Assembly (NCBI GenBank): GCA_017559505.1
Contig: JAFYSF010000025.1
Span: 20,637-84,636, forward strand
Source: Paludibacteraceae bacterium
GTDB lineage: Bacteria; Bacteroidota; Bacteroidia; Bacteroidales; Paludibacteraceae
DNA: 64,000 bases
Direction of reading: 5' to 3'
In this document: piece after piece, positions 4,337-62,410 of the stretch
How the letters are laid out: every line of letters begins with the position of its first letter
Numbering within the stretch: the stretch's first letter is position 1
The notes under the pieces: model-generated
The model's database searches: none
What the model was told of the DNA's origin: nothing
The model's input: the letters and a program-made list of their open reading frames with translations, nothing else
Translations under genes and position numbers: made by a program

Positions 4337-4423
4337 TTTTTAAAATTAAAATTTGAAAATCACAATTCGGTAAAGTAAACTCAATCTAAACAATACCGAG
4401 CACAAACAAAACAAAAAACTTGA

Positions 4424-4458
4424 AACTTTCACATTTCAACTTTAAACTTTCAACTTTA
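4424..4458. repeat. tandem heptamer array AACTTTM x5
   Basis: aactttc acatttc aacttta aactttc aacttta. Overlaps the sufE stop and encodes its last residues (LLKLKV). Confidence 0.85.
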
Positions 4459-4870
4459 AAAGTGCATATGCCTTCATCTTTTCAACCATCGACACAAGTC
4501 CATTACTACGTGTTGGCGACAAATGTTCTTTCAAACCTATTTTATCGAGGAATCCAAAATTATATTTTACAACCTCTTCTGCCGTACAACCCGACATCAT
4601 ATTTATCAAGAGCGCAACAATACCCTTTACTATTATCGCATCACTTTCTCCTCTAAAATACAATCTACCATCTTGCTCATCACACACCAACCACACCTGA
4701 CTCTGACAGCCTTTTATCAGTGTATCATCATTCTTTTCTTCTGCCGACAAACCTTCTAATTCTCCTCCCAAATCCACAAGATATTGGTAACGATCCATCC
4801 AATCCTCATAAACCTCAAATTCCTCAAGTAATTCAATCTCTTTTTCTTCTAATGTTTTCATATATTTCAA
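4442..4870 (-). CDS. sufE: SufE-family cysteine desulfuration protein
   Basis: 142 aa with the KGCQSQVW active-Cys loop and the SPTRSNGL motif. Confidence 0.85.
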   Translation of the reverse strand: MKYMKTLEEKEIELLEEFEVYEDWMDRYQYLVDLGGELEGLSAEEKNDDTLIKGCQSQVWLVCDEQDGRLYFRGESDAIIVKGIVALLINMMSGCTAEEVVKYNFGFLDKIGLKEHLSPTRSNGLVSMVEKMKAYALLKLKV

Positions 4871-4899: not shown

Positions 4900-6084
4900 T
4901 TATTTTTTAATTCTATCAAATTCATCCCAAAAATTCGGATACGACTTATTTACCACCTCTGGGTTCTCTATTTCAATCTCTCTCATTAACCCTACAATCG
5001 ACATCGACATTGCTATACGATGGTCATTATACGCATTTATATATGGCACTTTTTCGCCTTCACCTCTCTCTCCCAACCAACAAATTTTACCCTTTTCATC
5101 ATATTTCAACGCATATCCACACTTACGCATTTCCGTCATCATCGCCCCTATTCTATCACTCTCCTTCACTCTCAACGTTTTCACACCACTTATCTCAAAT
5201 TCTACTCCCAACAAACATGCCACCACTACTATATACATCACAGCGTCTGGCATATTTTCACAATTCAGCTCTAATTTATTCACCTTGCATCCACTCCACT
5301 CTATTGCAACACCACCTTCTATCTCTTTAGTTTCAACCCCTAATCGTGCAAACACCTCCACCACCGCTCTATCAGGCTGAACGCTATCTAAACTCAATCC
5401 CAAAAATCTAAACTCCCCTCTTTTCAATACCGCCATCATAGCATACCACACCGTTGCCGACGACCAATCTTTCTCTCCACTATATCCTACACCTCTTCTA
5501 TATCTTTCTATCACACTATTTGTCAATCTAATATACGATTTCGAGGCCACATCTCCCTCATATTCTATCTCAATTCCACCCTCCACTCTGTCTGCAATCA
5601 ACATCAATGCCGATGCAAACTGACTACTCAACGACGCATCTAATCTCACTCGTCCGCCCCTCAATGCCTTACCTTTTATTTTCAATGGAGCAAATCCCTC
5701 TTTATCTACATAAGAAATATCTGCCCCCATTGCAAGCAAAACATCAACCAATGGCTTTATTGGTCGCTCACACAATCTTTTCGACCCAGTCAACACAAAT
5801 TCCCCCTCACTCACAGCACAATAAGCTGTCATAAACCGCAAAGCTGTCCCCGAATGATGCAAATCTAAATTCGTAATTGTGCATTGTGCATTGTGCATTG
5901 TGCACTGTTTCAACGCCCTCGACAACACAAATATATCATCATTCTCATCTTCAACCCCCACTTCTATTCCATTCAAAGCATCTAACACCAACTCCCTTGC
6001 CCTCACACTTTTCGACAAAGGCAAACCAATTGAGAACTTACCTTCTCCTGCATTATGAATTGTGAATTGTGAACCGTAGGTCAT
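4900..6084 (-). CDS. aroA: 3-phosphoshikimate 1-carboxyvinyltransferase (EPSP synthase)
   Basis: 394 aa with the motifs LPLSKSV, HSGTALRFMTAY, GSKRLCERPI and KESDR. Confidence 0.9.
   Translation of the reverse strand: MTYGSQFTIHNAGEGKFSIGLPLSKSVRARELVLDALNGIEVGVEDENDDIFVLSRALKQCTMHNAQCTITNLDLHHSGTALRFMTAYCAVSEGEFVLTGSKRLCERPIKPLVDVLLAMGADISYVDKEGFAPLKIKGKALRGGRVRLDASLSSQFASALMLIADRVEGGIEIEYEGDVASKSYIRLTNSVIERYRRGVGYSGEKDWSSATVWYAMMAVLKRGEFRFLGLSLDSVQPDRAVVEVFARLGVETKEIEGGVAIEWSGCKVNKLELNCENMPDAVMYIVVVACLLGVEFEISGVKTLRVKESDRIGAMMTEMRKCGYALKYDEKGKICWLGERGEGEKVPYINAYNDHRIAMSMSIVGLMREIEIENPEVVNKSYPNFWDEFDRIKK
5873..5907. repeat. tandem heptamer array TGCATTG x5 inside aroA
   Basis: gtaattg tgcattg tgcattg tgcattg tgcactg. 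On the coding strand it encodes QCTMHNAQCTITN. Confidence 0.9.
6051..6078. repeat. tandem heptamer array AATTGTG-type x4 at aroA 5' end
   Basis: cattatg aattgtg aattgtg aaccgta. Encodes the aroA N-terminus MTYGSQFTIHNA. Confidence 0.8.
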
Positions 6085-8416: not shown

Positions 8417-8517
8417 ACCCATTTACAGTGTGTATCAAAATCACAAATCTCTCCTTACCCTCAAGCAACCTTCAAGCAACCTTCACCGAAGAAGACTGAC
8501 ACACACTCTCATTGTGT
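8417..8517 (-). repeat. copy 1 of the GTGTCAGTCTTCTTCGRTGAAGGTTGCTTGAAGGTTGC element family (reverse orientation; full ~105-bp form)
   Basis: The reverse complement aligns along its length with 49840-49948. The core also occurs at 23676-23724 and 40460-40558. Confidence 0.85.
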
Positions 8518-9599: not shown

Positions 9600-9665
9600 A
9601 AATTGAGAATTGAGAATTAAGAATTAAAAATTCAAGCATTCCTCACTCCTCACTCCTAATTCCTC
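9600..9665. repeat. two abutting heptamer arrays: GAATTRA x5 (9600-9634) and AYTCCTC x4 (9638-9665)
   Basis: aaattga gaattga gaattaa gaattaa aaattca / attcctc actcctc actccta attcctc. Confidence 0.85.
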
Positions 9666-9673
9666 ATTAAACT

Positions 9674-10843: not shown

Positions 10844-11155
10844 GCTTTTCAACATACTCACATCGTGCATTATTTTGTAGGTTTTCTTGCTTACACCTTG
10901 CTTGAAGGTATAAATAATATGGTAACATCACTCCCACTTTGTACATACGAGAACACTCTTGGGATGTCACTCTACTTAGGCACACATAAGGAGCAGCTAT
11001 GGCTCACTATCTTGGCTCTATTCTTAAACTTGCTATTCGCAAAATTCAAATTTTACGAAATTCAAGAGAGTAAACCTACATTTCCAACTTAAACCTCCAA
11101 CGCACTTTCAAGATGTTGTATCTTTGCAAAAAATTGAAGGAGGGCAAATAAAAAA

Positions 11156-11187
11156 ACATCCTCCGACCCAAAAGAGTCAAAGGATGT
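11156..11187 (-). terminator. hairpin with T-runs on both strands; probable nqr operon terminator
   Basis: Stem acatcct/aggatgt plus an inner gac/gtc pairing. On the minus strand it is followed by TTTTTTT. Confidence 0.55.
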
Positions 11188-11295
11188 TTTATTATAATAA
11201 ATATGCAATTTATTATTAAGCACCAAAGTTATTCACTAAAGTTCATGACTTTGGTTACACTCGGTAGAGTTTAAATAAATTTAACTCTACTCTCA

Positions 11296-12582
11296 TTAAG
11301 CACCAAAGTTGTCGAACATAAGGTTTTCGCGTGGAACACCAAGTGAATAGAGCATATTTTCAACTGCTTTACTCATTGGGCCAGGACCACACATGTAGTA
11401 TTCGATATCTTCTGGAGCATCGTGGTCTTTGAGGTATGTTTCGTAGATCACGTTGTGTACGAATCCAGGAGTATATTTAACACCTGCAGCATCAGCAGCA
11501 GGGTCTGGACGGTCGAGTGCCAAGTGGAAGTGGAAGTTAGGGAACTCTTTCTCAATAGCCATGAAATCTTCCAAATAGAACACTTCATTCAACGCACGTG
11601 CACCATAGAAGTAGTGCATTTCGCGGTCAGTAGTTTTCAATGTCTTAGTCAAGTGCATGATTTGAGCACGGAGAGGAGCCATACCAGCACCACCACCTAC
11701 CCACATCATCTCAGCTTTTGAGTCGAAGATTGGGTGGAAATCACCGTAAGGACCTGACATGATAACTTTATCACCTGGTTTGAGTGTAAAGATGTAAGAA
11801 GAAGCAATACCAGGCATTACATCCATAAAGCCACCACCTTGTTCTTTTGGTTTGAAAGGAGGAGTAGCAATACGCACTGTAAGCATGATACGGTCGCCCT
11901 CAGCTGGGTAGTTAGCCATAGAGTAAGCACGGATAGTTTCTTCAGTATTTTCGCATTTCAAGCCAAAGAGACCGAAGTTTTTCCAAGCATCGAGATAACC
12001 CTCGCCGATGAGAGATTTGTCGATGTCTTTATCATAATCCATTTTGAATTTAGGGATTTTGATTTGAGCATACGAACCTGGGATGAAGTCCATGTGTTCG
12101 CCTGGAGGCAATGCAACAATAAACTCTTTGATAAACGTAGCAACGTTTTTGTTAGAGATAACTTCGCATTCCCACTCTTTAACGCCAAGAACTGATTCGT
12201 CAACTTTAAGAGCCATATCACCCTTAACTTTTACTTGACAACCAAGACGCCAGTGGTCTTTAACTTGTTTACGTGAGAAGTGAACTGTTTCAGTAGGGAG
12301 AATTTCGCCACCACCTTCAGTCACTTGGCAACGGCATTGACCGCAAGAACCTTTACCACCACAAGCTGATGGAAGGAATACACCTGCATTAGCCATAGCA
12401 TTGAGGAGTGAGCCACCTGCTGCAGCCTCTACCTCTTTTTCGCCATTAAGGGTAATTTTTACATTACCTGATGCTACTAAGTAGCGTTTAGCGATAAGCA
12501 ACACAATTACAAGAAGGATAATCACCAAAAGGAATACTGCCAAACTTGTAAGAGTCGCCACTGTATTGATTTCTAATAACAT
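11296..12582 (-). CDS. nqrF: Na+-translocating NADH:quinone reductase subunit F
   Basis: 428 aa with an N-terminal TM helix, a 2Fe-2S ferredoxin Cys cluster (CGGKGSCGQCRC) and an FAD/NAD-binding domain. Confidence 0.95.
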   Translation of the reverse strand: MLLEINTVATLTSLAVFLLVIILLVIVLLIAKRYLVASGNVKITLNGEKEVEAAAGGSLLNAMANAGVFLPSACGGKGSCGQCRCQVTEGGGEILPTETVHFSRKQVKDHWRLGCQVKVKGDMALKVDESVLGVKEWECEVISNKNVATFIKEFIVALPPGEHMDFIPGSYAQIKIPKFKMDYDKDIDKSLIGEGYLDAWKNFGLFGLKCENTEETIRAYSMANYPAEGDRIMLTVRIATPPFKPKEQGGGFMDVMPGIASSYIFTLKPGDKVIMSGPYGDFHPIFDSKAEMMWVGGGAGMAPLRAQIMHLTKTLKTTDREMHYFYGARALNEVFYLEDFMAIEKEFPNFHFHLALDRPDPAADAAGVKYTPGFVHNVIYETYLKDHDAPEDIEYYMCGPGPMSKAVENMLYSLGVPRENLMFDNFGA

Positions 12583-12594
12583 AATTCTTTAAAA

Positions 12595-12736
12595 AGTTTA
12601 GAGTTTAGAGTTTAGAGTTTAGAGTGAAAATTGTCTATAACTCATAAGTCTTAACTCGAATAGTTAATAGTTAATTGGTTTTATGTAAAGTAAATATATA
12701 GTGAATCTCTATACACTATACTTTACACACTATACA
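12595..12736. repeat. nqrE-nqrF spacer built of heptamer blocks
   Basis: AGTTTAG x4 (12595-12625), TAACTCA-type x3 (12638-12658), AATAGTT x3 (12659-12679), CTATACA-type x4 (12709-12736). Confidence 0.85.
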
Positions 12737-12740
12737 TTAA

Positions 12741-13385
12741 TTAGATTTTCAAGCCTGAGAAGCACATGAATGCCATTGCCATAAGACCTACGATGATGAA
12801 AGTAATACCAAGGCCTTTCAATGGTGCAGGCACATCAGAATACTCCATACGTTCGCGGATAGCAGCAAGACCAACGATAGCCAAAAGCCAACCAATACCA
12901 GAACCGAGAGCATAGAATACTACGTCAACAATACCAGTAAGAGCTTTAGGGTCAGTACCTTCGAGAATTACGCGTTGTTGCATGAACAACGAGCCACCCA
13001 TGATAGCACAGTTTACAGCGATAAGAGGCAAGAAAATACCCAATGACGCATACAAAGAAGGCGAGAATTTTTCGACAATCATCTCAACCAATTGTACGAT
13101 AGCAGCAATTACAGCGATGAAAAGAATCAAGCTGAGATAGCTGAGGTCCAAATCAGCAAAGCCTTCGCCCAACCATGATAAAGCACCTTTTTGGAGGATA
13201 CCAGTATAAAGGTAATAGTTAACAGGAAGGGTGATGAGAAGCACTGCTGTTACAGCAATACCAAGACCAACAGAGGTCTTCACATTTTTCGATACTGCAA
13301 GGTATGAACACATACCAAGGAAGTATGCGAATATCATATTGTCCGAAAAAATCGAACTCATAAATAAACTTAATGCGTGTTCCAT
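12741..13385 (-). CDS. nqrE: Na+-NQR subunit E
   Basis: 214 aa, polytopic; matches the NqrE/RnfA family N-terminus and sits in the expected operon position. Confidence 0.95.
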
Positions 13386-13400
13386 ATTTCAAATATTTTT

Positions 13401-13470
13401 GTCAACGGTCAACGGTCAACAGCTGATAGTCATTAGACTGTTGTCTGTAGACTGTAGACTTTCGACATTT
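13401..13470. repeat. nqrD-nqrE spacer: ten in-phase heptamers
   Basis: gtcaacg gtcaacg gtcaaca gctgata gtcatta gactgtt gtctgta gactgta gactttc gacattt. Paralogous to 16116-16185. Confidence 0.9.
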
Positions 13471-13472
13471 TA

Positions 13473-14093
13473 TTATTTTTCTTGAAGGTCTTTGTTGATT
13501 GAACGGTGAACCCAAATGATACAAGCCACGATGATAAGCGCCATAGCAGGCATCATCATCATACCATTGTTTACATAACCCATTTCGTAGAACGAAGCAG
13601 GAATTACACGGAAACCAAAGAGTGTACCTGAACCGAGCAATTCACGGAAGAACGCTACAACGATTAAAACCCATGCATAACCAAGACCGTTACCGATACC
13701 ATCGAGGAACGAAGGCCAAGGTTTGTTTGCCATAGCAAATGCTTCAAGACGGCCCATAAGAATACAGTTAGTAATAATCAAACCGATATAAACCGAAAGT
13801 TGCACGCTAAGGTCGTACATGAAAGCTTTCAAAACTTCTGACACTACAGTTACGAGAGCAGCAACAACAACCAATTGCACGATGATACGTACACTGTTAG
13901 GAATAGTGTTGCGGATAAGAGATACTACAACGTTAGCCATAGCCACGATGATAGTAACCGAAATACCCATAACGATAGCAGGTTTCAATTGTACTGTTAC
14001 AGCTAAAGCTGAACAAATACCAAGTACTTGGATAGCTACAGGGTTGTTCTTGTTAAGAGGGCCAAGTAGCGCATTTTTCAATTCTTCTTTCAT
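13473..14093 (-). CDS. nqrD: Na+-NQR subunit D
   Basis: 206 aa, polytopic; NqrD/RnfE family and expected operon position. Confidence 0.95.
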   Translation of the reverse strand: MKEELKNALLGPLNKNNPVAIQVLGICSALAVTVQLKPAIVMGISVTIIVAMANVVVSLIRNTIPNSVRIIVQLVVVAALVTVVSEVLKAFMYDLSVQLSVYIGLIITNCILMGRLEAFAMANKPWPSFLDGIGNGLGYAWVLIVVAFFRELLGSGTLFGFRVIPASFYEMGYVNNGMMMMPAMALIIVACIIWVHRSINKDLQEK

Positions 14094-14094
14094 A

Positions 14095-14838
14095 TTAGTT
14101 GCCTCCTTCGATTACAGGTTCAACAATAACACTGTCGGCTACTTCTTCTACTACGATAGCAGCAGGGGCAGTGAGGAAATTTTCGTAATTTACAAGACTT
14201 GAAGAAAGCATAGCTTCAACACCTTTAGAAGTAATAGTACCACCAGAGATAGCGTCAACTTGGTCGCGACCTTCTACTTTAGTACCAGCTTTTTCGATAG
14301 CGATAGAAGCGAATTTGCCATTTTTCAAGAGTTCTTTACCGATGAATGGGTTACGGAATTTTTCAGTAACGATTTCAGCACCAAGACCTGGAGTTTCACC
14401 TGCGTGGTTAAAGAACACACCAAATACAGTATTGCGGTCGTCGTTGAGAGCCATATAACCCCAGATGGCACCCCAAAGACCAGCACCATTCATAGGAAGG
14501 ATATATTTAGTTTCGCCATCAATTTCAGCTACATACATAGGGAATTGTCCCTCTTCAGCTTTGACGTCGAAATCAGCCACAGGGTCGAGAGTTTTCACTA
14601 CGTTACCTTCAGCATCGAGCATGTTATACTCTTTGATAGTTGCTGCATAAGTAGCTGCTGCATCTTCGCCCAATTCGATGCCTGGCAACGAATTAAGGAT
14701 TTGCTTTTTAGTGTCGAGACGCACGTTGTCTTCTTGGAAAGAACGAAGAGACCCCGAAGTAATCGACAATAGCAACGATACGATGGTAATGATTACCACC
14801 ATATATATTAACGTATAACTATTTTTATTTGTATTCAT
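14095..14838 (-). CDS. nqrC: Na+-NQR subunit C
   Basis: 247 aa with an N-terminal TM helix and an FMN-attachment-type motif SGGTITS. Confidence 0.9.
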   Translation of the reverse strand: MNTNKNSYTLIYMVVIITIVSLLLSITSGSLRSFQEDNVRLDTKKQILNSLPGIELGEDAAATYAATIKEYNMLDAEGNVVKTLDPVADFDVKAEEGQFPMYVAEIDGETKYILPMNGAGLWGAIWGYMALNDDRNTVFGVFFNHAGETPGLGAEIVTEKFRNPFIGKELLKNGKFASIAIEKAGTKVEGRDQVDAISGGTITSKGVEAMLSSSLVNYENFLTAPAAIVVEEVADSVIVEPVIEGGN

Positions 14839-14847
14839 AATTAATTC

Positions 14848-14924
14848 AGTTGAAAGTTGAAAGTTGAAAGCTGAAAGTTAGGTCATATAGAATATCTAAC
14901 CTTTAACCTCTAACCTTTAACCAT
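14848..14924. repeat. nqrB-nqrC spacer: eleven in-phase heptamers
   Basis: agttgaa x3, agctgaa, agttagg, tcatata, gaatatc, taacctt, taacctc, taacctt, taaccat. Confidence 0.9.
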
Positions 14925-14927
14925 TAT

Positions 14928-16097
14928 TTATTTTGCACGTTTGAGACGTTTGTTGATATTAGCTTGAACTACGTAGTAGTCGATCAAGTTTGCGAAGATG
15001 TTCATAAGCAAGATAGCAAGCATCATACCTTCTGGATAACCAGGGTTAAGAACGCGAACTACAATTGCTACAACACCAATCAAGAAACCATAGATCCATT
15101 TACCACACTCTGTGCGAGCAGAAGTAACAGGGTCAGTAGCCATAAACACAGCACCAAAAGCAAAACCTCCGAGTACGAGGTGCATATACCAAGGCATATT
15201 AGCAACTGCTGTATCAGGACCAAATTGGTTGAACAAGAATGCAGTGAACGCACCACCTACAAATACAGATAACATAGTTTTCCAGCTTGCAACACGAGTA
15301 ACAAGAAGAATAACAGCACCGATAAGGATAGCCAATGTAGAAACTTCACCTACTGAACCAGGGATGAAACCAAGGAATGCATCCATAAATGAAACTGGAT
15401 CAGTATATTCAGAAGCTACTGCTACTTGACCAAGAGGAGTTGCACCAGAGAAACCGTCGATTTTTTCACCTGCACCATACCAGAATGCGTCGCGTGTACG
15501 TACCCATACTTGGTCGCCCGACATTGCTGTAGGATATGCAAAGAAAAGGAATGCACGTGTAACCAAAGCCACGTTGAATACGTTGTAACCAGTACCACCG
15601 AATACTTCTTTAGCGAAGATAACTGCAAAAGCAGTAGCGATAGCAACCATCCAAAGTGGAGTGTCAACTGGCACAATCATAGGAATAAGGATACCTGATA
15701 CAAGGAAACCTTCTTGAATTTCATGACCTTTGAATTGAGCAACAGTAAATTCGATGCCAAGACCTACGATGTAAGAAACAAGAAGGATAGGCAATACAGC
15801 CAAAAGACCGAAAATGAATTGTTGCCAGAAAGTAGCATCTTGACCAATAGCCAAGAAGTGTTGGTAACCAACGTTCCACATACCAAAAAGGAGAGCAGGA
15901 ACGAGAGCAAGTACCACCATAATCATTGTACGTTTCGAGTCAGTAACGTCGTGGATGTGAACACCATGTTTTGCTGTATCGTTAGGCACAAACAAGAATG
16001 TTTTGAATCCATCGAACACCGAGTGAAACATATGAAGTTTACCACCTTCAGAGAAAGTAGGTTCAACTTTGTCTACGATGTTTTTTAAAAATTTCAT
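14928..16097 (-). CDS. nqrB: Na+-NQR subunit B
   Basis: Start moved to MKFLKNIVDKVEP (ATG = revcomp 16095-16097). The ORF-track extension reads into the heptamer spacer. Confidence 0.9.
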   Translation of the reverse strand: MKFLKNIVDKVEPTFSEGGKLHMFHSVFDGFKTFLFVPNDTAKHGVHIHDVTDSKRTMIMVVLALVPALLFGMWNVGYQHFLAIGQDATFWQQFIFGLLAVLPILLVSYIVGLGIEFTVAQFKGHEIQEGFLVSGILIPMIVPVDTPLWMVAIATAFAVIFAKEVFGGTGYNVFNVALVTRAFLFFAYPTAMSGDQVWVRTRDAFWYGAGEKIDGFSGATPLGQVAVASEYTDPVSFMDAFLGFIPGSVGEVSTLAILIGAVILLVTRVASWKTMLSVFVGGAFTAFLFNQFGPDTAVANMPWYMHLVLGGFAFGAVFMATDPVTSARTECGKWIYGFLIGVVAIVVRVLNPGYPEGMMLAILLMNIFANLIDYYVVQANINKRLKRAK

Positions 16098-16115
16098 ATT
16101 TCTTTTATTGATTAT

Positions 16116-16185
16116 GTCAACAGTCAACGGTCAACGGTCGATAGTCAAATAGACTGTAAACTTTAGACTGTAGACTTTAGACATT
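16116..16185. repeat. nqrA-nqrB spacer: ten in-phase heptamers
   Basis: gtcaaca gtcaacg gtcaacg gtcgata gtcaaat agactgt aaacttt agactgt agacttt agacatt. Confidence 0.9.
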
Positions 16186-17538
16186 TTATTCAAGTTCTTT
16201 TCTCATATAGTTGAGGGCTTCGCGTACGATACGTTGTGTTTCAATTTTTGAAGTACAAACGAATTCGCAGAGGGCAAAATCTTCAGGAGCCACTTCGTAT
16301 GCACCGAGTTGTTCCATTTTCTCAAGGTTACGAGCAATCATAGCTTTAACCAATTGTTCTGGCATAATGTCCATTGGGAATACACGGTCGTATTCACCAC
16401 TTACGATGAATGCACGTTCTCCACCAAGGATACGAGCATCGAAATCGAATTGTTTTTTAGGACAAAGCATGCGTTGCAATTTTGTAAGGAAGAGGCATGA
16501 ATTAGAGAATTTGTTGAAACGTGGCATTGCCCAACCGAGAAGTTCGTCAGCTTCATCACCTTCTGCAATAACAGTTACTACATTTGCAAATGGTGAAAGG
16601 AACGATTTTTCATCAGTTTTCAAACCTGTAAGAACGTTACCGTTGATTACACGAATGTGTTCATCGAGGTTAAGGTTACCTTCTGTGATGTTGTTGACAA
16701 CTGTACCACTGATTGTTTCAACATAAACAGGGTGTTTTACTTTTGGACCAGCAACTGCTACTTTACGAGCAAAGTCGAGTTTACCTGTGTTTACATAACG
16801 GCCAAGCATTGCTACGTCCATAATGTTCATTGTCCAAACTGCTTCTTCTTTGTTCACTGGATTGAGGTGGTTGATTTGCACACCTACGTTACCAGCTGGG
16901 TGAGCACCGATGAATTCGTTGATTTCAACGCCTTTCATGTTACGCAATTCTGCCGATGTTGCAGGAGATACTGAATAGTAAGTTTTAGCAATAGCAGCCA
17001 AAACATTCAAACCTGCTTGTACATTAGCCTCTTCGCCTTTCAATACGAAATTGTAGTCAGCAGCCAAAGGAGCAGAATCAAAAGCAGATACGAAGATTGC
17101 TTTTGGAGCAACTTTAGGGTTAGCAACTACATCGTAAGGACGTTGACGCAACATAGCACCGAAACCAGCAGCCAACATAGCAGCGAGAATAGACTCTTTG
17201 CCTGCTTTAAGATCCATTGTAGGAAGCTCAGCTTGCTCTGTTTTACCGTTTTGTTCGATGAGCACGTAGAGTAGTTTACGGCGTTCGCCGCGTGCTACTT
17301 GCTTGATTGTACCACAAACGGGAGATACAACCTTCACCTCTGGGTGATTTTTGTCAAACAAGATAGGTGTACCGACTTTTACTTCGTCACCTTCTTTGAC
17401 AGCCACCTTAGGTGTCATACCTTCAAAATAATCAGGAACGATACCTACCTCTTGCGAGATAACTTTGCCAGCTACTTTAGCTTCAGCATCGCCTGAAATT
17501 TTGATGTTTAAACCTTTTTTTAATTTGATTGTTGTCAT
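16186..17538 (-). CDS. nqrA: Na+-NQR subunit A
   Basis: 450 aa; first gene of the nqrABCDEF order and full-length NqrA-like. Confidence 0.95.
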   Translation of the reverse strand: MTTIKLKKGLNIKISGDAEAKVAGKVISQEVGIVPDYFEGMTPKVAVKEGDEVKVGTPILFDKNHPEVKVVSPVCGTIKQVARGERRKLLYVLIEQNGKTEQAELPTMDLKAGKESILAAMLAAGFGAMLRQRPYDVVANPKVAPKAIFVSAFDSAPLAADYNFVLKGEEANVQAGLNVLAAIAKTYYSVSPATSAELRNMKGVEINEFIGAHPAGNVGVQINHLNPVNKEEAVWTMNIMDVAMLGRYVNTGKLDFARKVAVAGPKVKHPVYVETISGTVVNNITEGNLNLDEHIRVINGNVLTGLKTDEKSFLSPFANVVTVIAEGDEADELLGWAMPRFNKFSNSCLFLTKLQRMLCPKKQFDFDARILGGERAFIVSGEYDRVFPMDIMPEQLVKAMIARNLEKMEQLGAYEVAPEDFALCEFVCTSKIETQRIVREALNYMRKELE

Positions 17539-23675: not shown

Positions 23676-23724
23676 GTGTCAGTCTTCTTCGATGAAGGTT
23701 GCTTGAAGGTTGCTATTGGGTAAA
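23676..23724 (+). repeat. copy 2 (core only) of the GTGTCAGTCTTCTTCGATGAAGGTTGCTTGAAGGTTGC element
   Basis: gtgtcagtcttcttcgatgaaggttgcttgaaggttgctattgggtaaag. Confidence 0.85.
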
Positions 23725-25979: not shown

Positions 25980-27084
25980 TTTATTATACGATATTGCTCT
26001 CACACAATTATTTATGGTTGGACCTCGTACTGCTAGAACATTGACAGAACATCTTGGATCGGCAGAAGCAGTGTTCAAAGAATCGGCAGAGGTATTGCGA
26101 ACCATTGGTGGAGTTGGAGCATATATTTCGGATGATGGATATAGACAAGAGGCATTGCGTAGAGCAACAGAAGAAATAGAATTTATTACAAAGAATAAAA
26201 TTAAAGCTATTCCTTGGGGTTCAGATGACTACCCTACTAAACTTGCTCAATGTGGAGATGCACCACAGATATTATATCAATATGGCAATTGCGATTTGAA
26301 TACTCAAAAATTTGTTGCCATAGTAGGCACTCGTAATGCCACAAAATATGGGCGAGACTTGACAAATGAATTGGTAAGAACTCTTGCAACATCAAACCCA
26401 GACACTGTTATTATCAGCGGATTGGCTTATGGCATAGACATAGCAGCACATAAAGCAGCCCTTGAATATGGACTGCCGACAATAGGAGTTGTTGCTCATG
26501 GACTTGACCGAATTTATCCCCATGTACACCGACAATATGCATCGCAAATGATACAATCGGGAGGAGCTATAATAACAGAATATCTCTCAAAAACCAACCC
26601 CGACCCTCAAAATTTTGTACAACGCAATCGTATAGTGGCAGGAATGAGTGATGTAGTGGTTATTGTTGAATCTGCAATTAAGGGTGGATCACTTATAACT
26701 GCTAATATAGCAAATGATTACAATCGAGATGTGATGGCATTCCCAGGACGCATAGGAGATAAAACATCGGAAGGTTGCAACAAATTGATACGCCAACACA
26801 AAGCTGAAATTATTACTTCAGCAGAAGATTTAATAAATCTAATGGGATGGAATGCCCCTCAAAAAAATGCAGTGCAACAAACACTGTTTAACAACTTAAC
26901 ACCCGAACAACAATCGGTAGTAGATTTGCTAAAAACAGGACCTCAACACATTAATGTAATAAGTACAAACCTTGATTTATCAATACAAAAAACATCGGCT
27001 TTACTTACTGAAATGGTTTTTGATGAACTAATAGACCAACTACCCGGAGATGTTTATACTTTAAAACTGAGAATTGAAAATTGA
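25969..27084 (+). CDS. dprA: DNA-processing protein DprA
   Basis: Start at MNNNLLYDIALTQL (ATG 25969). Rossmann-like core VAIVGTRNATKYG...GLAYGIDIAAH. Confidence 0.9.
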   Translation: MNNNLLYDIALTQLFMVGPRTARTLTEHLGSAEAVFKESAEVLRTIGGVGAYISDDGYRQEALRRATEEIEFITKNKIKAIPWGSDDYPTKLAQCGDAPQILYQYGNCDLNTQKFVAIVGTRNATKYGRDLTNELVRTLATSNPDTVIISGLAYGIDIAAHKAALEYGLPTIGVVAHGLDRIYPHVHRQYASQMIQSGGAIITEYLSKTNPDPQNFVQRNRIVAGMSDVVVIVESAIKGGSLITANIANDYNRDVMAFPGRIGDKTSEGCNKLIRQHKAEIITSAEDLINLMGWNAPQKNAVQQTLFNNLTPEQQSVVDLLKTGPQHINVISTNLDLSIQKTSALLTEMVFDELIDQLPGDVYTLKLRIEN

Positions 27085-27087
27085 AAA
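27067..27087. repeat. heptamer array TTGARAA x3 at dprA 3' end
   Basis: ctgagaa ttgaaaa ttgaaaa. Encodes the dprA C-terminus LRIEN and its stop. Confidence 0.6.
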
Positions 27088-31966: not shown

Positions 31967-32032
31967 TTATAGTATGTTTATAGTATATTTATCCTATATT
32001 TATAGTATATTTATGGTATATTTATAGTATAT
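31967..32032. repeat. 6 x 11-bp tandem array (TTATAGTATAT family), module copy A
   Basis: ttatagtatgt ttatagtatat ttatcctatat ttatagtatat ttatggtatat ttatagtatat. Paralogous to 62150-62215. Confidence 0.9.
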
Positions 32033-32123
32033 TGAAGGTATGAAGAGGATAGGGTGAGGGGAGGGGGGATTGTGTGTGTATTTATGGGGTGGTGGGGGTG
32101 GAGGGTGTAATGTGTTGGGTGTG
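32033..32123. repeat. G/T-rich low-complexity tail with G-runs, roughly 7-nt phased
   Basis: tgaaggt atgaaga ggatagg gtgaggg gaggggg ... ggggtggtgggggtggaggg. Confidence 0.6.
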
Positions 32124-36671: not shown

Positions 36672-36710
36672 AAACTCTCCATTAGGTATATGCCGAATGG
36701 AGAGTTTTTT
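36672..36710 (+). terminator. tpiA terminator; first copy of the CTCCATT...GAATGGAG hairpin
   Basis: 12-bp stem aaactctccatt/aatggagagttt with a 12-nt loop and a T-run. Confidence 0.75.
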
Positions 36711-37729: not shown

Positions 37730-37740
37730 GAATAATTAAA

Positions 37741-37780
37741 AAAATCTTCATTCGCATTATTGGTGAATGGAGATTTTTTT
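37741..37780 (+). terminator. terminator hairpin, cassette copy 2
   Basis: Stem atcttcattc/gaatggagat (one U-G pair) followed by TTTTTTT. About 90% identical to 39218-39263. Confidence 0.7.
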
Positions 37781-37781
37781 A

Positions 37782-39217: not shown

Positions 39218-39263
39218 AAAAAAATCTCCATTCGCATTATTATTGCCGAATGGAGATTTTTTT
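39218..39263 (+). terminator. terminator hairpin, cassette copy 3
   Basis: Perfect 14-bp stem aaaatctccattcg/cgaatggagatttt with a 12-nt loop. Confidence 0.75.
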
Positions 39264-40459: not shown

Positions 40460-40558
40460 GTGTCAGTCTTCTTCGATGAAGGTTGCTTGAAGGTTGCTTA
40501 CAGATAAGGAAAGGTTTTATCTTATCCATCAGCAAAGTACAAGCAACCTTTAAGCAAG
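40460..40558 (+). repeat. copy 3 of the GTGTCAGTCTTC... element core, extended into a long hairpin
   Basis: The core is followed by a 15-bp stem (40485-40499 with 40541-55, one G-U pair) that encloses an inner gataag/cttatc hairpin. Confidence 0.8.
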
Positions 40559-40917
40559 AAAACAGCCATCTTTACACCCTACATTTACAAAGTCTGCAAA
40601 ACAAATAAAATCCACTTGACCAAGTTTATTTTCCTAAAAAATAGACAATTTTTCTACTTTTTTCCTAAATAAATAGACGAACTTTGCAATTGCAAAGTTG
40701 CAAAGTTAATCTAAAGTTCTGATTATTAAAGCTAAAGCCTCTTTGCATTGTAATCAATCCTAATAAATATTTAGCATGTAACTCAAAGAATACCACCGTG
40801 TTGTCTTAATTTTATAAACTTTGTAAACTTTGCAACTCCTTATAAGCAAAAAATCTTATGTTAATATCTTGTTAATATTTTTAATAAAAAACAGCGTGGA
40901 ACATTCGAAAAAAAATG

Positions 40918-40971: not shown

Positions 40972-42003
40972 ATGAGAGTGTTGATAACTTGTTTTTCGTC
41001 TATTAGCAATGTTGCTGCAATTGTTCCACAGCTTTATGGACTTGTGAATGACTATCCTCAGCACGAATTTGTTGTGCTAAGCCGTAGTTTTTTGAAGCCA
41101 TTGTTCGACAAATTGCCACGTGTGACTTTTGTCGGTGCTGACATTCGTGGCGAGCATAAAACAATCGTTGGGGTATATCAGTTATTCAAACAATTAAAGG
41201 CTATGAGGCCAGATGTTGTATTAGACATGCAACGCTCGTGGCGCACGAAGTTGATAACTCGCCTTTTTACATTGTTAGGTACTAAAACTTTACAAATTGG
41301 ATTTGCTCGAAGCGAACAAAAACATTTGATTAAACAAGGAGCAAACAAGTATCACCCAATTCCTACAATATTCGACCGCCAAGCACGTTTATATGCTAAA
41401 ATAGGGCTGAAAGTAAACGATGATTTCCATAAACTCTATGACCCAAACATGGAGCAAGTGGCAAAAATCAAAGAATTGTATGGGGAGAAACTTGGACATT
41501 GGATTGGCATTGCTCCATTCTCGATTGCAAGAGGTAAAACATTGCCACTCCGCAAGATGAAGAATGTTATTGCTCATTTTGACAAGCAACCAAATACAAA
41601 AATTTTCTTGTTCGGCGCAGGAGAAATGGAGAACGAGTTGCTCTCTGATTGGCAATCGCTCTACAACAATGTTTATGCGGTGCATACAAATTTGAAACTT
41701 GACGATGAATTGATATTGATGAATTTTTTGGATGTTATGTTGTGTATGGACTCGGCTAATATGCACTTAGCGTCGTTGATGGCTGTACCTGTGGTGAGTG
41801 TTTGGGGCGCAACGCATCCTTATTCGGGATTTCTTGGATGGAAACAGTCTGTGGATAATTGCGTAGGAGTAGATTTTTCGTGCCGACCTTGTACGGCTCA
41901 TTCCGACAAGAAATGTAAATATGGCGACTATCGTTGCCTCGAAAGTCTCCATTCAAGCAAAATAATAGAAATAATTAATCAATGCATAATGCACAATGCA
42001 TAA
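40972..42003 (+). CDS. glycosyltransferase family 9 (heptosyltransferase-like)
   Basis: 343 aa with a two-Rossmann GT-B layout. Its size and motifs resemble LPS heptosyltransferase-type proteins. The C-terminus (QCIMHNA) is encoded by a heptamer array. Confidence 0.6.
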   Translation: MRVLITCFSSISNVAAIVPQLYGLVNDYPQHEFVVLSRSFLKPLFDKLPRVTFVGADIRGEHKTIVGVYQLFKQLKAMRPDVVLDMQRSWRTKLITRLFTLLGTKTLQIGFARSEQKHLIKQGANKYHPIPTIFDRQARLYAKIGLKVNDDFHKLYDPNMEQVAKIKELYGEKLGHWIGIAPFSIARGKTLPLRKMKNVIAHFDKQPNTKIFLFGAGEMENELLSDWQSLYNNVYAVHTNLKLDDELILMNFLDVMLCMDSANMHLASLMAVPVVSVWGATHPYSGFLGWKQSVDNCVGVDFSCRPCTAHSDKKCKYGDYRCLESLHSSKIIEIINQCIMHNA

Positions 42004-42015
42004 TGCACAATTGCC
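41981..42015. repeat. tandem heptamer array AATGCAY x5
   Basis: aatgcat aatgcac aatgcat aatgcac aattgcc. Confidence 0.9.
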
Positions 42016-42054
42016 ATTCGGTATTTGTTTAATTAATAATAAAAAGATAATTAA

Positions 42055-42089
42055 GATTATGCATTGTGCATTTAGCATTGTGCATTGAA
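42055..42089. repeat. tandem heptamer array CATTGTG-type x5, inverted relative to 41981-42015
   Basis: gattatg cattgtg catttag cattgtg cattgaa. Confidence 0.9.
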
Positions 42090-42098
42090 ATAAGAATT

Positions 42099-42860
42099 AT
42101 GGGAAAAATTATAGCAATAGCAAATCAAAAAGGTGGTGTAGGTAAGACAACCACAAGTATAAATCTTTCGGCATCGTTGGCTCGTGAAGGCAAAACTGTG
42201 TTGCTCATTGATGCTGACCCTCAGGCAAATGCTTCATCGGGTTTGGGTGTTGACGTGAAAGATTTGAAAACAACGGTTTACGAGTGTATGATTGGCGAAG
42301 TGAAAGTGGCTGATGCCACTTTTGACACTGAAATCGAGGGGCTAAAAATTGTACCTTCGCATATCGACCTTGTAGGTGCTGAAATAGAGATGCTTAATCT
42401 CGACAATCGTGAGAAATGTATGCGTAATATGTTGGTGACAGAAAAAAGCAAATATGATTATATCATTATTGACTGCTCGCCATCGTTGGGGCTTATTACA
42501 GTAAATGCCCTTACAGCTGCCGATTCGGTTATCATACCTGTGCAATGCGAATATTTTGCACTTGAGGGTATTGGTAAGTTGTTGAATACCATTAAAATTA
42601 TCAAAAGCGGACTCAATCCTGCACTTAACATAGAAGGCTTCTTGCTCACTATGTTCGATGCTCGTCTTCGCTATGCTAATCAAGTAGCTGAAGAGGTGCG
42701 TAAACACTTCGGCGATATGGTATTCAAAACCTCTATTCAACGTAATGTGAAATTGTCAGAAGCAACATCGTATGGTCAGCCTGCGATTGTGTATGACCCT
42801 GATTCGCGTGGCGCACAAAATCACATTGAACTTGCTAAAGAATTGATTAACAAGAATTAA
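42099..42860 (+). CDS. parA: chromosome partitioning ATPase ParA/Soj
   Basis: Start at MGKIIAIANQKGGVGKTTT (ATG 42099), which contains the deviant Walker A motif. Confidence 0.9.
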   Translation: MGKIIAIANQKGGVGKTTTSINLSASLAREGKTVLLIDADPQANASSGLGVDVKDLKTTVYECMIGEVKVADATFDTEIEGLKIVPSHIDLVGAEIEMLNLDNREKCMRNMLVTEKSKYDYIIIDCSPSLGLITVNALTAADSVIIPVQCEYFALEGIGKLLNTIKIIKSGLNPALNIEGFLLTMFDARLRYANQVAEEVRKHFGDMVFKTSIQRNVKLSEATSYGQPAIVYDPDSRGAQNHIELAKELINKN

Positions 42861-42985
42861 ATATTTCCTACAAATAACACAAATATTCACAAATTTATAA
42901 TTTATTTGTGGGGATAAAGGATGGTAAATAAAATATTAAGAGCGAGCAGTATATCTATCGCTACTCGCAACTAAATGTCTATTAT

Positions 42986-43858
42986 ATGAAAAAACAAGTT
43001 TTAGGTCGTGGACTCAGTGCTTTGATTGAAACAGAGCCAGTGGCAGCAGTGGGTTCTACTATATTTAATGAAATAGAAATCAGCAAAATATATCCAAATC
43101 CTAATCAGCCTCGTACTGATTTTGATGACGACGCTTTAGAGGAATTAGCTACATCGATTCGAGCAAATGGCATCATTAGCCCTATTACTTTACGTAAAAT
43201 TTCTGATGACAACTACCAAATTATAGCTGGTGAACGTCGTTATCGTGCATCTAAAATGGTGGGATTAGATAAAATTCCAGCTTATATTCGTGATGTTGAT
43301 GATGGTCAAGTCATGGAAATGGCTCTTATCGAAAACATCCAACGCGAAGACTTAAATGCAATAGAAATTGCGTTGAGCTACAACAGTCTTGTGGCTACAC
43401 TCAATCTCACACAAGAAGCATTGGCAGAGCGTGTTGGCAAAAAACGTGCAACTATTACCAACTATCTTCGTCTTCTCAAACTCCCTGCAGAAATTCAAAT
43501 GGGATTGAAAAACAAAAAGATAGATATGGGTCATGCGCGTGCGCTTGTCAGTGTCGAAAATCCTGAGGTATTGCTAAATATCTATGCTCAAGTGCTTGCC
43601 GAAGGTGCATCTGTGCGTCGCACCGAAGAGTTAGTACGTTTGGCATCAACTAACGAAATTGTAGAAAAACCCCTCAAAAAAGAAAAACAACACACTTTCA
43701 TCCCAGAAGAATATGAAGCACTTTGCAAAGAATTAAACGATAAATTCAATGCTAAAGTAAAACTTTCGTACAACGAAAAAGGCAAAGGCAAAGTAACAAT
43801 TCCTTTCGATTCTGACGACGATTTGATGCGCCTAATGTCATTGTTCGACAAAATATAA
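42986..43858 (+). CDS. parB: chromosome partitioning protein ParB/Spo0J
   Basis: 290 aa with PNPNQPRTDFD, the IIAGERRYRA arginine patch and an HTH region. Confidence 0.9.
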   Translation: MKKQVLGRGLSALIETEPVAAVGSTIFNEIEISKIYPNPNQPRTDFDDDALEELATSIRANGIISPITLRKISDDNYQIIAGERRYRASKMVGLDKIPAYIRDVDDGQVMEMALIENIQREDLNAIEIALSYNSLVATLNLTQEALAERVGKKRATITNYLRLLKLPAEIQMGLKNKKIDMGHARALVSVENPEVLLNIYAQVLAEGASVRRTEELVRLASTNEIVEKPLKKEKQHTFIPEEYEALCKELNDKFNAKVKLSYNEKGKGKVTIPFDSDDDLMRLMSLFDKI

Positions 43859-49839: not shown

Positions 49840-49948
49840 ACACACAGTGAGTGGGTGTCAGTCTTCTTCGGTGAAGTTTGCTTGAAGGTTGCTTGAGAGG
49901 GTAGGAAGATATTTGGATTTTGAATATACACTGTGAATGGGTAGTCAG
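49840..49948 (+). repeat. copy 4 (full ~105-bp form) of the GTGTCAGTCTTC... element, with ~20-bp terminal direct repeats
   Basis: DR-L is acacagtgagtgggtgtcag (49842-61) and DR-R is acactgtgaatgggtagtcag (49928-48). The core is gtcttcttcggtgaagtttgcttgaaggttgcttgagagggtagg. Confidence 0.85.
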
Positions 49949-54378: not shown

Positions 54379-54398
54379 AATACAAAGGTACAAAAAAA

Positions 54399-54433
54399 AG
54401 TTGAAATGTAAAATTTGAAAATTGAAAGTTTTT
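54399..54433. repeat. heptamer array ARTTGAA-type x5
   Basis: agttgaa atgtaaa atttgaa aattgaa agttttt. Confidence 0.65.
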
Positions 54434-54753
54434 TACTTTTATTTTATTAACAATAGTTATTAACAAATATGTGAATTAGTTGTGGAAAAATAATAACAAA
54501 TATTTTGAAAATGGTATTGTAATTGTAAAAAATAAAAATATATGAAAAAAGTTTTTTAATAACAATGCACAACAGTTATAAATTTATTATCTATTTTTTC
54601 AACATAAAACTAACATAGCTAAATTATTAAAAAACAATAATATAAATATAATTACTAACATTTTCCACACCATATAATTATTATCATTTTTTATTTTATT
54701 AAAAAGAAAAAATTAAATCTAAATAATAGTTTGAGAGGAAATGTGTAATTCTA

Positions 54754-57667: not shown

Positions 57668-58660
57668 TTTCCAATGTGGATTATTTTTTTTGTAAAATAA
57701 TATTGATATTATTATTGTTAATATGTATAGAGGATAGAATAATGACATTAAAGGGAAGAATATTGGATAGTATTTTAATATTTTATGTTGTTTATATTTA
57801 AATAGATAAGGCAACATTATTATATTTTCAATAATGAAAATTATTAAAAATATAGGAAGTATAAAATGAGGAATGAGAAATATGAATATTAGTAATAAAA
57901 TATTGATGATTGCAACTGAAAAAGCAACTAATATTGTTGTAAAATCTTTATAATTTATTGATTTAGATGCCCAACGAGTGCGTTGGATGATGAATTTTTT
58001 AAATGAATTTGTGCCTTTAGTTTTAATTATATAGTTGCTATCATATAGATAATTTATTTTTGCCTTGCTTTTTTTGAGTGCATGTAACATAAACATATCA
58101 TCACCTGAAGCAATATTTTTGTTTATTTTGTCTATATACTGGATATATATATTGCGCTTTATAATTAAATTAGCACCATTACACATAATAGGATTATTGA
58201 GTAGGGCTGTGTAAGCAGTAATTGCTTGAAGAGAAGAAAATTCTATTTTTTCTATTATATTAAAAATACCTTTTTCATCAATAATATCTACAGCGCCAAG
58301 TAGCATATCACTATTATTTTTATTGAGATATTGTAGTGCTAATTCACAATGATTATTATTTAAGCAACAATCGGCATCGGTAAATATTAGATATTTAGAT
58401 GTTGCTATTTTAGCTGCTTCTATTAGTGCTGATTTTTTACCTTTACCACTATTTTTAATTACCTTTATTTTATTATATTTTTTTGAATAATTTATTAAAA
58501 AATTGTAGGTTTCATCGGTAGAATTGTCATCAACAAATATAACTTCATCTGGCTTGAATGTTTGGTTTTTTATAGATTCAAGCAAGTTAGTAAGATTGCT
58601 TATTTCATTGCGACAAGCAATTATAATTGAAAGTTGAGAATTGAGAGTTGAAAATTGCAT
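57665..58660 (-). CDS. glycosyltransferase family 2 with C-terminal TM helices
   Basis: 331 aa with IIIACRNE...VIFVDDNSTDET and TDADC. The N-terminal MQFSTLNSQLS is encoded by a heptamer array. Confidence 0.75.
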   Translation of the reverse strand: MQFSTLNSQLSIIIACRNEISNLTNLLESIKNQTFKPDEVIFVDDNSTDETYNFLINYSKKYNKIKVIKNSGKGKKSALIEAAKIATSKYLIFTDADCCLNNNHCELALQYLNKNNSDMLLGAVDIIDEKGIFNIIEKIEFSSLQAITAYTALLNNPIMCNGANLIIKRNIYIQYIDKINKNIASGDDMFMLHALKKSKAKINYLYDSNYIIKTKGTNSFKKFIIQRTRWASKSINYKDFTTILVAFSVAIINILLLIFIFLIPHFILPIFLIIFIIENIIMLPYLFKYKQHKILKYYPIFFPLMSLFYPLYILTIIISILFYKKNNPHWK

Positions 58661-62149: not shown

Positions 62150-62215
62150 TTATAGTATATTTATAGTATGTTTATAGTATATTTATCCTATATTTATGGT
62201 ATATTTATAGTATAT
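62150..62215. repeat. 6 x 11-bp tandem array (TTATAGTATAT family), module copy B
   Basis: ttatagtatat ttatagtatgt ttatagtatat ttatcctatat ttatggtatat ttatagtatat. Confidence 0.9.
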
Positions 62216-62371: not shown

Positions 62372-62410
62372 CAGTTTGATAGAAAAATAATCAGAAAACA
62401 AATAAAAAGA

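Follow-up and report, generated by a model that had tools for sequence, protein, structure and literature searches.

Four of the five junctions between the cistrons of the nqrABCDEF operon, as found in a 64,000-nucleotide (nt) stretch of contig JAFYSF010000025.1 (hereafter the window, with a GC content of 36.7%), are occupied by long spacers that are built from tandem units of 7 nt. With a probability of roughly 0.55 we take these spacers to be slippage-prone, STRR-like heptanucleotide repeat hairpin cassettes, which are occasionally copied from one spacer to another and transcribed as intercistronic stem-loops. The host, a gut bacterium, can be placed by its NqrD protein, which is 100% identical to that of metagenome-assembled genomes (MAGs) of Candidatus Aphodosoma sp. 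(Bacteroidales). The initial annotation of this DNA knew of no described class of element with such properties, but several have been published (PMC4692102, PMC2670836 and PMC4679880), so that the class exists already, the hairpin between cistrons included. The claim to an undescribed class is therefore not supported, and what is new here is population data on a known and poorly understood kind of element.

Layout, period and folding of the nqr spacers

The operon is found on the minus strand at 11296-17538 and its genes are recognised by their Pfam matches (NQRA, NQR2_RnfD_RnfE, FMN_bind, Rnf-Nqr twice and Fer2/NAD_binding_1) as nqrA (16186-17538), nqrB (14928-16097), nqrC (14095-14838), nqrD (13473-14093), nqrE (12741-13385) and nqrF (11296-12582), all on the minus strand, as are the spacers between them. 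The nqrA/nqrB (A/B) spacer is 88 nt long (16098-16185, hairpin at 16114-16184), the nqrB/nqrC (B/C) spacer 89 nt (14839-14927, hairpin at 14855-14922), the nqrD/nqrE (D/E) spacer 87 nt (13386-13472, hairpin at 13400-13467) and the nqrE/nqrF (E/F) spacer, a composite of two hairpins with a short array between them, 158 nt (12583-12740), and the range of 58-158 bp initially given for them needs correcting in that none is 58 nt long. The remaining nqrC/nqrD (C/D) junction, at 14094, measures 1 nt (TAATATG) and is without an array. Every cassette follows one layout, in which the stop codon and 0-10 further nt are followed by a 5' heptamer array, a loop, a 3' heptamer array roughly complementary to the first, an A-rich leader of 9-20 unpaired nt and the ATG of the next gene. 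The arms of the A/B spacer consist, on the plus strand, of three to four GTCAACR and five AGACTGT/AGACTTT units, with an A-rich leader of 18 nt left unpaired ahead of the nqrB ATG, and those of D/E, on the same strand, of three GTCAACG and four GACTGTA-type units with an unpaired leader of 15 nt. On the mRNA the arms of B/C read as four GGTTARA and four to five CTTTCAA units. In E/F, hairpin 1 (12682-12729) is made of GTATAGT/GTGTAAA units, the short array of two AACTATT units (12659-12675), and the 3' arm of hairpin 2 (12601-12657) of four ACTCTAA units on the mRNA, equivalent to four AGAGTTT units on the plus strand at 12595-12625.

All four long spacers furthermore have an ATG 1-6 nt past the upstream stop codon (TAAAATG, TAAATAATG, TAATAAAATG and TAATTAATG), found on the mRNA strand at 16182-16185, 14919-14921, 13463-13466 and 12732-12734, and the mini open reading frames (ORFs) that begin there span 4-17 codons and reach into the 5' arm of the hairpin. 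This is an unproven regularity, noticed post hoc, and according to the allele listing the post-stop ATG is present in only about half of the alleles from other strains.

Period-7 arrays of 2.4-4.7 copies were detected by Tandem Repeats Finder in all four long spacers, in agreement with heptanucleotide simple sequence repeats (SSRs) of the LSSR/STRR type, which are defined by three or more head-to-tail 7-nt units. Over their combined 422 nt the self-match at lag 7 is 0.596 as against 0.292 +/- 0.022 in 300 dinucleotide-preserving shuffles, none of which reaches the observed value (z 13.9); lag 14 is raised as well, and lags 5, 6, 8 and 9 are not. The enrichment over shuffled controls, whose absence the initial annotation had named as a refutation, extends to intergenic DNA elsewhere in the window (0.336 versus 0.305 in shuffles, z 5.9), and coding DNA displays period 3 only. 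Counting arrays of at least 16 nt in the window, 16 have period 7, as compared to 0, 4, 1, 3 and 2 for periods 5, 6, 8, 9 and 10, and apart from two arrays inside or at the edge of ORFs the over-represented period is confined to non-coding DNA. Arrays of this genome are thus shown to have a strong preference for period 7, and a weaker one is seen in the nqr loci of other Bacteroidales discussed below.

Several details of the original description can be made more precise. The ten consecutive units beginning with G that had been read in 13401-13470 are exact, and nine of them additionally have C at position 3, both features reflecting a G-W-C core that is nearly its own complement. The eleven units claimed for 14848-14924 comprise four or five repeats and then four repeats, whereas the three loop heptads between them are not repeats. 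Similarly, a register held across blocks of different motifs is found in D/E, whereas the phase slips by 1 nt at the loop of A/B and is undefinable for unrelated motifs.

Each spacer is predicted to fold as one long imperfect hairpin, or two in the case of E/F, with the two heptamer arrays as its arms and with mismatches every 7 nt, which would recur in this manner because one variant unit has been amplified within an arm. The dyad symmetry noticed at the outset is therefore a property of all four spacers and amounts to 26 pairs, 5 of them G-U, on the plus strand of D/E. The better folding strand is the plus strand for A/B (-26.0 kcal/mol, z -5.1) and D/E (-30.1 kcal/mol, z -5.1) and the mRNA strand for B/C (-18.0 kcal/mol, z -2.0, with -11.2 for the antisense) and E/F (-31.3 kcal/mol, z -3.3). 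When alleles from other strains (see below) are included, all 38 distinct alleles of at least 40 nt fold as a long imperfect hairpin, or two in composite E/F, with z between -2 and -6 on one strand or both; the last 9-20 A-rich nt ahead of the ATG are unpaired in nearly all of them. Folding thus finds inverted pairs of arrays with the capacity for a hairpin between genes of one operon, as in the precedents at hupS-hupL and in Xanthomonas, and structured intercistronic RNA, which was one of three options put forward for the arrays, gains support from the fact that every allele folds in this way. By inspection, the 5' arms on the mRNA are purine-rich in most families (GGTTAAA, AGTAATA, GAAGACA, GAGTTAA), and the 3' arms beside the start codon are in most families pyrimidine-rich and poor in G (CTTTCAA, CTTACTA, CATGTCT, ACTCTAA).

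Intrinsic terminators were considered as an identity for the spacer hairpins and rejected, given that none is called as such on the mRNA strand and that A-rich sequence rather than a T-run comes next. The canonical intrinsic terminator of the operon, at 11153-11190 on the minus strand, has a 17-bp stem followed by a T-run, and its non-heptameric sequence contrasts with the spacer hairpins. Rfam gave no match at gathering score over the whole window and none at an E-value of up to 1 over 12500-16300, no tRNA or tmRNA was found in the window, and a promoter scan returned promoter-like matches at the same level as in shuffles.

Variation of the spacers among Aphodosoma strains

For comparison 33 Aphodosoma nqr loci, the window included, were assembled from exact-protein look-ups of NqrD, NqrE and NqrC together with two loci from a scan of a genome collection (individual loci are denoted by L and a number). 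Their Nqr proteins are 90-100% identical and their flanking coding DNA differs by 0.3-9%, nearly all of it synonymous in nqrD and nqrE. The same loci hold 8 distinct spacer sequences at A/B, 12 at B/C, 2 at C/D, 11 at D/E and 7 at E/F, which by inspection belong to 3, 3, 2, 4 and 4-5 unrelated families, respectively. Base-for-base copies of the window spacers occur in 8 loci for A/B, in 9 for D/E and in 16 for E/F; each window spacer recurs exactly in 1-16 other loci, and all four are found together in L238. It is true that the data are MAGs and metagenome contigs and that repeats are known to trouble assemblers, but identical spacers in 8-16 independent assemblies, made from different samples with different pipelines, rule out an assembly artefact, which absence from such assemblies would have indicated. 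Since none of the shuffles reaches the observed lag-7 value either, chance or artefact is an already refuted explanation with a probability of practically nil.

Related alleles differ in steps of the unit. The A/B alleles of 88 and 81 nt are distinguished by one unit less in one arm, and the B/C alleles of 55 and 83 nt by two units more per arm. A further hairpin, found in the window between a GT9 glycosyltransferase gene and parA (41979-42088, plus strand), has arms of four AATGCAY and four GTGCATT units around a 44-nt loop and is paralogous to an nqrA/B allele of other strains; among contigs with identical ParA its arms hold 4/4, 4/2, about 2/3 and 2/2 units. Further alleles measure 95 versus 81 nt, and there are 60- and 52-nt versions in which the 5' arm is shorter too. 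On the same GT9-parA contigs the non-heptameric parA-parB spacer (124-145 nt) is conserved, with point changes and one indel of about 20 nt only, and the short spacers parB-DUF5683 (8 nt) and DUF5683-SLT (15 nt) show hardly any variation. Copy number thus differs among relatives by multiples of 7 nt, as in repeats of the LSSR/STRR type, and the alleles show that the arms gain and lose whole units (7, 14 or 28 nt) independently of one another, which supports the slippage option of the initial annotation. Likewise, the 3' arm of E/F is made of four ACTCTAA units in the window and of three ACTCTAT and one ACTCTAA in the L081 type, showing that a base change spreads through the units of one arm by homogenisation within it.

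Relationships between whole cassettes run across junctions rather than within them. Unrelated alleles of the same junction align no better than shuffles (z -1.5, 0.0 and 0.9), whereas related cassettes are found at different junctions, as with A/B and D/E of the window, which were correctly recognised as paralogues at the outset and are 85% identical over their whole length, loop included (z 19.6), with C/D and D/E of L086 (z 12.1), with E/F of L087 and D/E of the window (z 12.3), and with A/B of L083 and the GT9-parA element of the window (z 11.0). The homology of such paralogues spans from just past the stop codon to the ATG, leader included, which makes the whole spacer the unit that is copied. 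The only site seen both empty and filled is C/D, where L086 carries a 74-nt heptamer-hairpin cassette, 12 nt having given way to 80 nt without duplication of a target site.

These observations bear on the main rival explanation, which regards the cassettes as mobile but non-autonomous elements (MITE/REPIN type) that are inserted into intergenic sites by a transposase encoded elsewhere in the genome (such as a Y1/RAYT enzyme acting on hairpins of single-stranded DNA), with the heptamer arrays as its subterminal binding or folding sites. Such elements would account for the dispersal of a GTCWACR family over A/B and D/E of the window, B/C of L001 and E/F of L087, for its inverted occurrence with a different loop at D/E of L082 and L088, for the paralogy between the L083 A/B allele and the GT9-parA element some 26 kb away in the window, for the empty and filled states of C/D and for the unrelated alleles at one site. 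They are however in poor agreement with the lack of target-site duplications and of defined termini, with a replacement rather than a clean insertion at C/D, with homology that continues through the leader, with the great diversity of the units and their variable number, with the tendency of new copies toward neighbouring spacers of the same operon, and with the presence of the same architecture on unrelated high-GC soil contigs. A MITE in the strict sense was rejected on two of these grounds, namely the exchange of 12 for 80 nt at C/D of L086 without duplication and the paralogue homology up to the ATG. No transposase, RAYT or reverse transcriptase was found by Pfam among the approximately 50 ORFs of a crude ORF map of the 64-kb window, and it is because this search spanned only 64 kb of the genome that mobility ranks as the main rival, although we regard it as unlikely.

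In the reading that we prefer, that of slippage-prone cassettes, units would grow and shrink by replication slippage, and their size may be set by the polymerase active site, which according to a published hypothesis relayed in PMC4692102 holds about 7 nt of DNA and thereby favours slippage. Template switching or ectopic gene conversion, and not a transposase, would occasionally copy whole cassettes into other spacers, near or far, and homologous recombination could then shuffle them among strains, as suggested by spacer alleles that mostly track their flanking haplotypes. The cassettes are predicted to be transcribed as stem-loops between the nqr cistrons, with selection mainly keeping the leader before the ATG unstructured. 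If they have any positive role, it would most likely be a modest one that depends on structure rather than on sequence, either in shielding the upstream mRNA from 3' exonucleases or in uncoupling neighbouring cistrons, these being by analogy the roles proposed for REP and for the STRR hairpin of cyanobacterial hupS-hupL.

Several points weigh against this reading. Spacer alleles largely track the flanking synonymous haplotypes, and part of what appears as turnover may therefore be old divergence shuffled by recombination. Simple slippage would favour units shorter than 7 nt, and dispersed paralogous families together with polymorphism of presence and absence are equally expected from an element mobilised in trans. 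The better folding strand is furthermore inconstant, being the antisense strand for A/B and D/E and the mRNA for B/C and E/F, and this gives no support to optimisation at the level of the mRNA. Finally, covariation is weak, with one of 41 predicted pairs compensatory and several broken in an RNAalifold analysis of four E/F alleles, and the hairpin form could accordingly be a by-product of the origin of the cassettes, for example by inverted duplication, rather than a selected trait; since the E/F alleles shift register, we do not claim support from covariation.

The weak covariation argues equally against the notion that the spacers are specific functional RNAs under purifying selection, whether processing sites, terminators of antisense transcripts or small RNAs. 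This notion could draw on the significant folds with z down to -6, on the hairpins of the antisense strand that are followed by T-rich sequence (as in ATTTTATTATTTTT after D/E), and on an architecture that is kept in all alleles. The spacers have however no match in Rfam even at an E-value of 1, their sequences are unconserved among closely related strains, and they are absent from L003, the next Aphodosoma species, all of which makes such a function very unlikely. A more elaborate and decidedly improbable proposal is that cassettes consisting of stop codon, heptamer hairpin, leader and ATG are written into junctions, and exchanged between them, by a dedicated mechanism (hairpin-templated synthesis in 7-nt steps or transposition of single-stranded DNA) and act as contingency 'rheostats'. 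Should this be true, the number of units would set the stability of the hairpin and thereby tune the relative output of neighbouring cistrons in the population, and a conserved molecular ruler would lie behind the recurrence of period 7, and even of the same GTCAAC-type unit, in Bacteroidota, in cyanobacteria and in soil bacteria of high GC.

What Aphodosoma offers, being sampled in dozens of metagenome assemblies, is the gain and loss of units, their homogenisation, the copying of cassettes and the replacement of alleles, all in one essential and highly conserved operon, and these population data make rates and mechanisms measurable and could be followed up by tests in two-cistron reporters. 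The nqr spacers are in addition hypervariable strain markers and likely break points of metagenome contigs.

Heptamer arrays beyond the Aphodosoma nqr operon

The heptamer arrays are no peculiarity of nqr, as another 9 occur elsewhere in the window. Of the 16 period-7 arrays 14 are at gene boundaries, and arrays are borne by 9 of 39 co-directional, 1 of 5 divergent and none of 5 convergent junctions, while canonical terminator hairpins are found at no fewer than 4 of the 5 convergent ones. Besides the GT9-parA hairpin they include AAAGTTG-type and TTTCAAA-type arrays in the spacer between sufE and the next gene (4338-4461, minus strand), two adjoining arrays of four GAGAATT and four TCCTCAC units (9601-9666, no strand assigned) between the divergent dus and an Fe-S assembly gene, an array at 27063-27087 on the plus strand, and 4.7 copies of AATTGAR at the 5' end of a GT2 glycosyltransferase gene (58625-58657, minus strand). 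Two more are associated with aroA, the gene for EPSP synthase (ORF 4900-6084), both on the minus strand. One, with 4.7 copies of ATTGTGC at 5876-5908, lies in frame within the ORF, reads as four GCACAAT on the coding strand and encodes ...KQCTMHNAQCTITN... within a segment whose alignment to EPSP synthases of solved structure is poor, and the other, an ATTGTGA array at 6052-6073, covers the first codons at the 5' end of the ORF. Either coding DNA evidently tolerates arrays, or the start codon has been miscalled. Arrays also cause start and stop codons to be called wrongly, and several ORFs of the window run into them.

The window contains some other repeats as well. A conserved 37-nt element (approximate length), GTGTCAGTCTTCTTCGRTGAAGGTTGCTTGAAGGTTGCT, in which one 11-mer is repeated twice and which has no Rfam match, occurs in four intergenic copies (23678-23714, 40462-40498 and 49857-49893 on the plus strand and 8464-8500 on the minus strand); at 40461-40568 it is part of a 48-nt imperfect inverted repeat, and a related sequence is found downstream of nqrF in L002. 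A module with six to seven copies of (TTATAGTATAT), followed by TGAAGGTA..AGGG and G-rich tracts, is present twice (31967-32070 and 62150-62250), and 150-250 nt downstream of each copy there is a TAACTTTG motif that resembles the -7 promoter box of Bacteroidetes. Period-11 arrays also recur in the related loci L081-L090. Several canonical terminators (39218-39263, 37737-37781 and 36672-36707) share a common CTCCATTCG / CGAATGGAG stem, and CCATTCGG is found inside the loops of AATGCAY-type heptamer hairpins (42012-42024 and the A/B allele of L083), which hints at a shared origin of some terminators and hairpin cores. The window also holds parA and parB (42099-43858), mnmG/gidA (52501-54378) and an AT-rich gap of 375 nt (54379-54753) in a stretch where windowed GC drops to 27-28%, and the chromosomal replication origin may be near these; GC skew over the window tracks gene orientation only. 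Two long minus-strand ORFs near the window end (62391-63005 and 63414-63851), unmatched in Pfam, are probably spurious; the plus strand from about 63000 to the window end is coding-like, with a suspected aminoacyl-tRNA synthetase.

A second comparison set consists of 78 other nqr loci, almost all labelled as Bacteroidales or relatives, whose junctions are short, with a median of 16.5 nt and only 15 of 352 reaching at least 60 nt. The junctions of L003, with an NqrD 92% identical to that of the window, measure 42, 11, 1, 6 and 38 nt and are without the cassettes. Even so, the 78 loci contain 16 period-7 arrays as against 0-6 at other periods, such as, in both L037 and L049, four AATTGAC directly ahead of the start codon of nqrE, four AATTGAA ahead of nqrC in L055 and an AATGAAG/CTTCATT hairpin in A/B of L069. 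By our estimate the density of arrays is about 10-fold higher in the Aphodosoma nqr loci than in these.

Single arrays placed directly before the ATG of nqrE or nqrC, as in L037, L049 and L055, may suggest phased binding sites with one protein for every 7 nt, and this was another of the options put forward initially. Arrays do adjoin start codons, no other explanation accounts for period 7 recurring across phyla, and for the TAACTGA repeats S1, Csp or CsrA have been proposed as binders in PMC4679880, which also cites evidence for the binding of CspB to heptamer repeats with one protein per heptamer. However, the genome holds at least 8 unrelated heptamers and alleles of the same junction are unrelated, so that recognition could not be sequence-specific, and the option of a phased array of sequence-specific sites is weakened to that extent. 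Furthermore, the arrays of Aphodosoma are mostly paired with each other, the 9-20 nt ahead of the ATG are non-repetitive, and arrays take no fixed orientation with respect to the gene. A periodic single-strand-binding protein is the weaker rival because the units are so diverse, and we consider phased binding in general to be quite unlikely.

In a metagenome collection exact GTCAACG x3 arrays are found in at least 120 loci, with a GC content of 0.32-0.77 among the matches listed. Of 135 GTCAACG arrays among those same matches, 39 are accompanied by an inverted partner array no more than 160 nt away, on contigs with a GC content of 0.34-0.72, and many of the partnered arrays are on high-GC soil contigs and consist of three to four GTCAACG, a loop and three to four CGTTGAC. 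One of the contigs, L130, carries GCGATCGC sites, which are typical of the cyanobacterial HIP1 repeat. In a viral collection GTCAACG x3 was matched 10 times, the two permuted heptamers tried as controls 1 and 10 times, an octamer array twice and a hexamer array, a kind of repeat that coding DNA can accommodate, 46 times. There is no sign in these controls that GTCAACG is a special heptamer, and with a single hexamer and a single octamer control (n = 1 per class) they favour a preference for period 7 only weakly. When the array sequences were searched as strings in the literature, only unrelated primers matched.

Relation to known repeat systems

Over-representation of heptamers in bacterial intergenic DNA has been known since the work on STRR around 1990, and later genome surveys have found it too. 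MIRU (mycobacterial interspersed repetitive units) are likewise tandem repeats in the intercistronic spacers of operons with copy numbers that are polymorphic among strains, but their units are of 40-100 bp, they have small ORFs overlapping the flanking stop and start codons, and they lack an architecture of hairpin arms. The REP/BIME and REPIN families resemble the Aphodosoma cassettes in being extragenic imperfect palindromes, often within operons, that form dispersed families with presence and absence varying between strains, and the mRNA stem-loops of REP are said to stabilise upstream mRNA (Newbury et al., 1987). A REP family however has one conserved sequence of about 20-35 nt rather than tandem heptamers, and REPINs are linked to a RAYT transposase, none of which was seen within the 64-kb Aphodosoma window. 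An assignment to REP/REPIN was thus rejected, the families seen here having 2-6 diverged copies in 64 kb and arms made of tandem heptamers.

Closer parallels are found among heptameric repeats proper. According to Rehm 2015 (PMC4692102), heptameric SSRs are over-represented in many bacterial genomes, a statement made there after Mrazek 2007. The same paper describes about 185 GGGAATC arrays in Xanthomonas, of which 70-75 are inverted pairs with the potential for stem-loops or cruciforms; array lengths vary among close relatives while the single or paired type is kept, and most arrays are transcribed. In Nostoc, an array of 26 GGGGATT units lies between pecE and pecF (PMC4692102). Intergenic excess of heptamers and variation in length are shared with Aphodosoma, as are, in Xanthomonas, the inverted pairs, but the GGGAATC and GGGGAYT repeats are G-rich, have a single consensus and are capable of forming G-quadruplexes, none of which applies to Aphodosoma.

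The TAACTGA repeats described by MacGregor 2015 (PMC4679880) adjoin start codons in Beggiatoaceae, cyanobacteria and five Bacteroidetes and vary by indels in 7-nt steps. They are thus like the present arrays in being heptamers a few nt from start codons, in the size of their indels and in that relatives have shorter spacers without repeats, and the paper moreover reports some Bacteroidetes spacers with 'assemblages' of different heptamer repeats. On the other hand the TAACTGA repeats are almost all direct and of a single unit, with one inverted case, whereas those of Aphodosoma are mostly inverted pairs of many different units.

For the cyanobacterial STRR, 'usually made up of 7 bp repeats', Devine 2009 (PMC2670836) describes how in four taxa they form a hairpin that separates hupS from hupL, and proposes a function in transcript stability or translational coupling. 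The nqr spacers are like them in that both consist of intergenic tandem units of 7 bp and both include a hairpin between co-transcribed genes for subunits of a membrane redox enzyme, although they occur in another phylum and another habitat. The STRR3 unit, CAACAGT, is a cyclic permutation of the GTCAACA unit of the window. The cassettes are nevertheless not cyanobacterial STRR sensu stricto, given that the host is Candidatus Aphodosoma of the Bacteroidales and that most units are unrelated to the STRR1-3 consensus. Whereas STRR are a few consensus heptamers used genome-wide, the units of Aphodosoma are many, unrelated and mostly AT-rich, and they form arms that are imperfectly complementary, with mismatches every 7 nt. 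Finally, the replacement of whole cassettes from strain to strain is seen in Aphodosoma and is not reported in the STRR papers examined.

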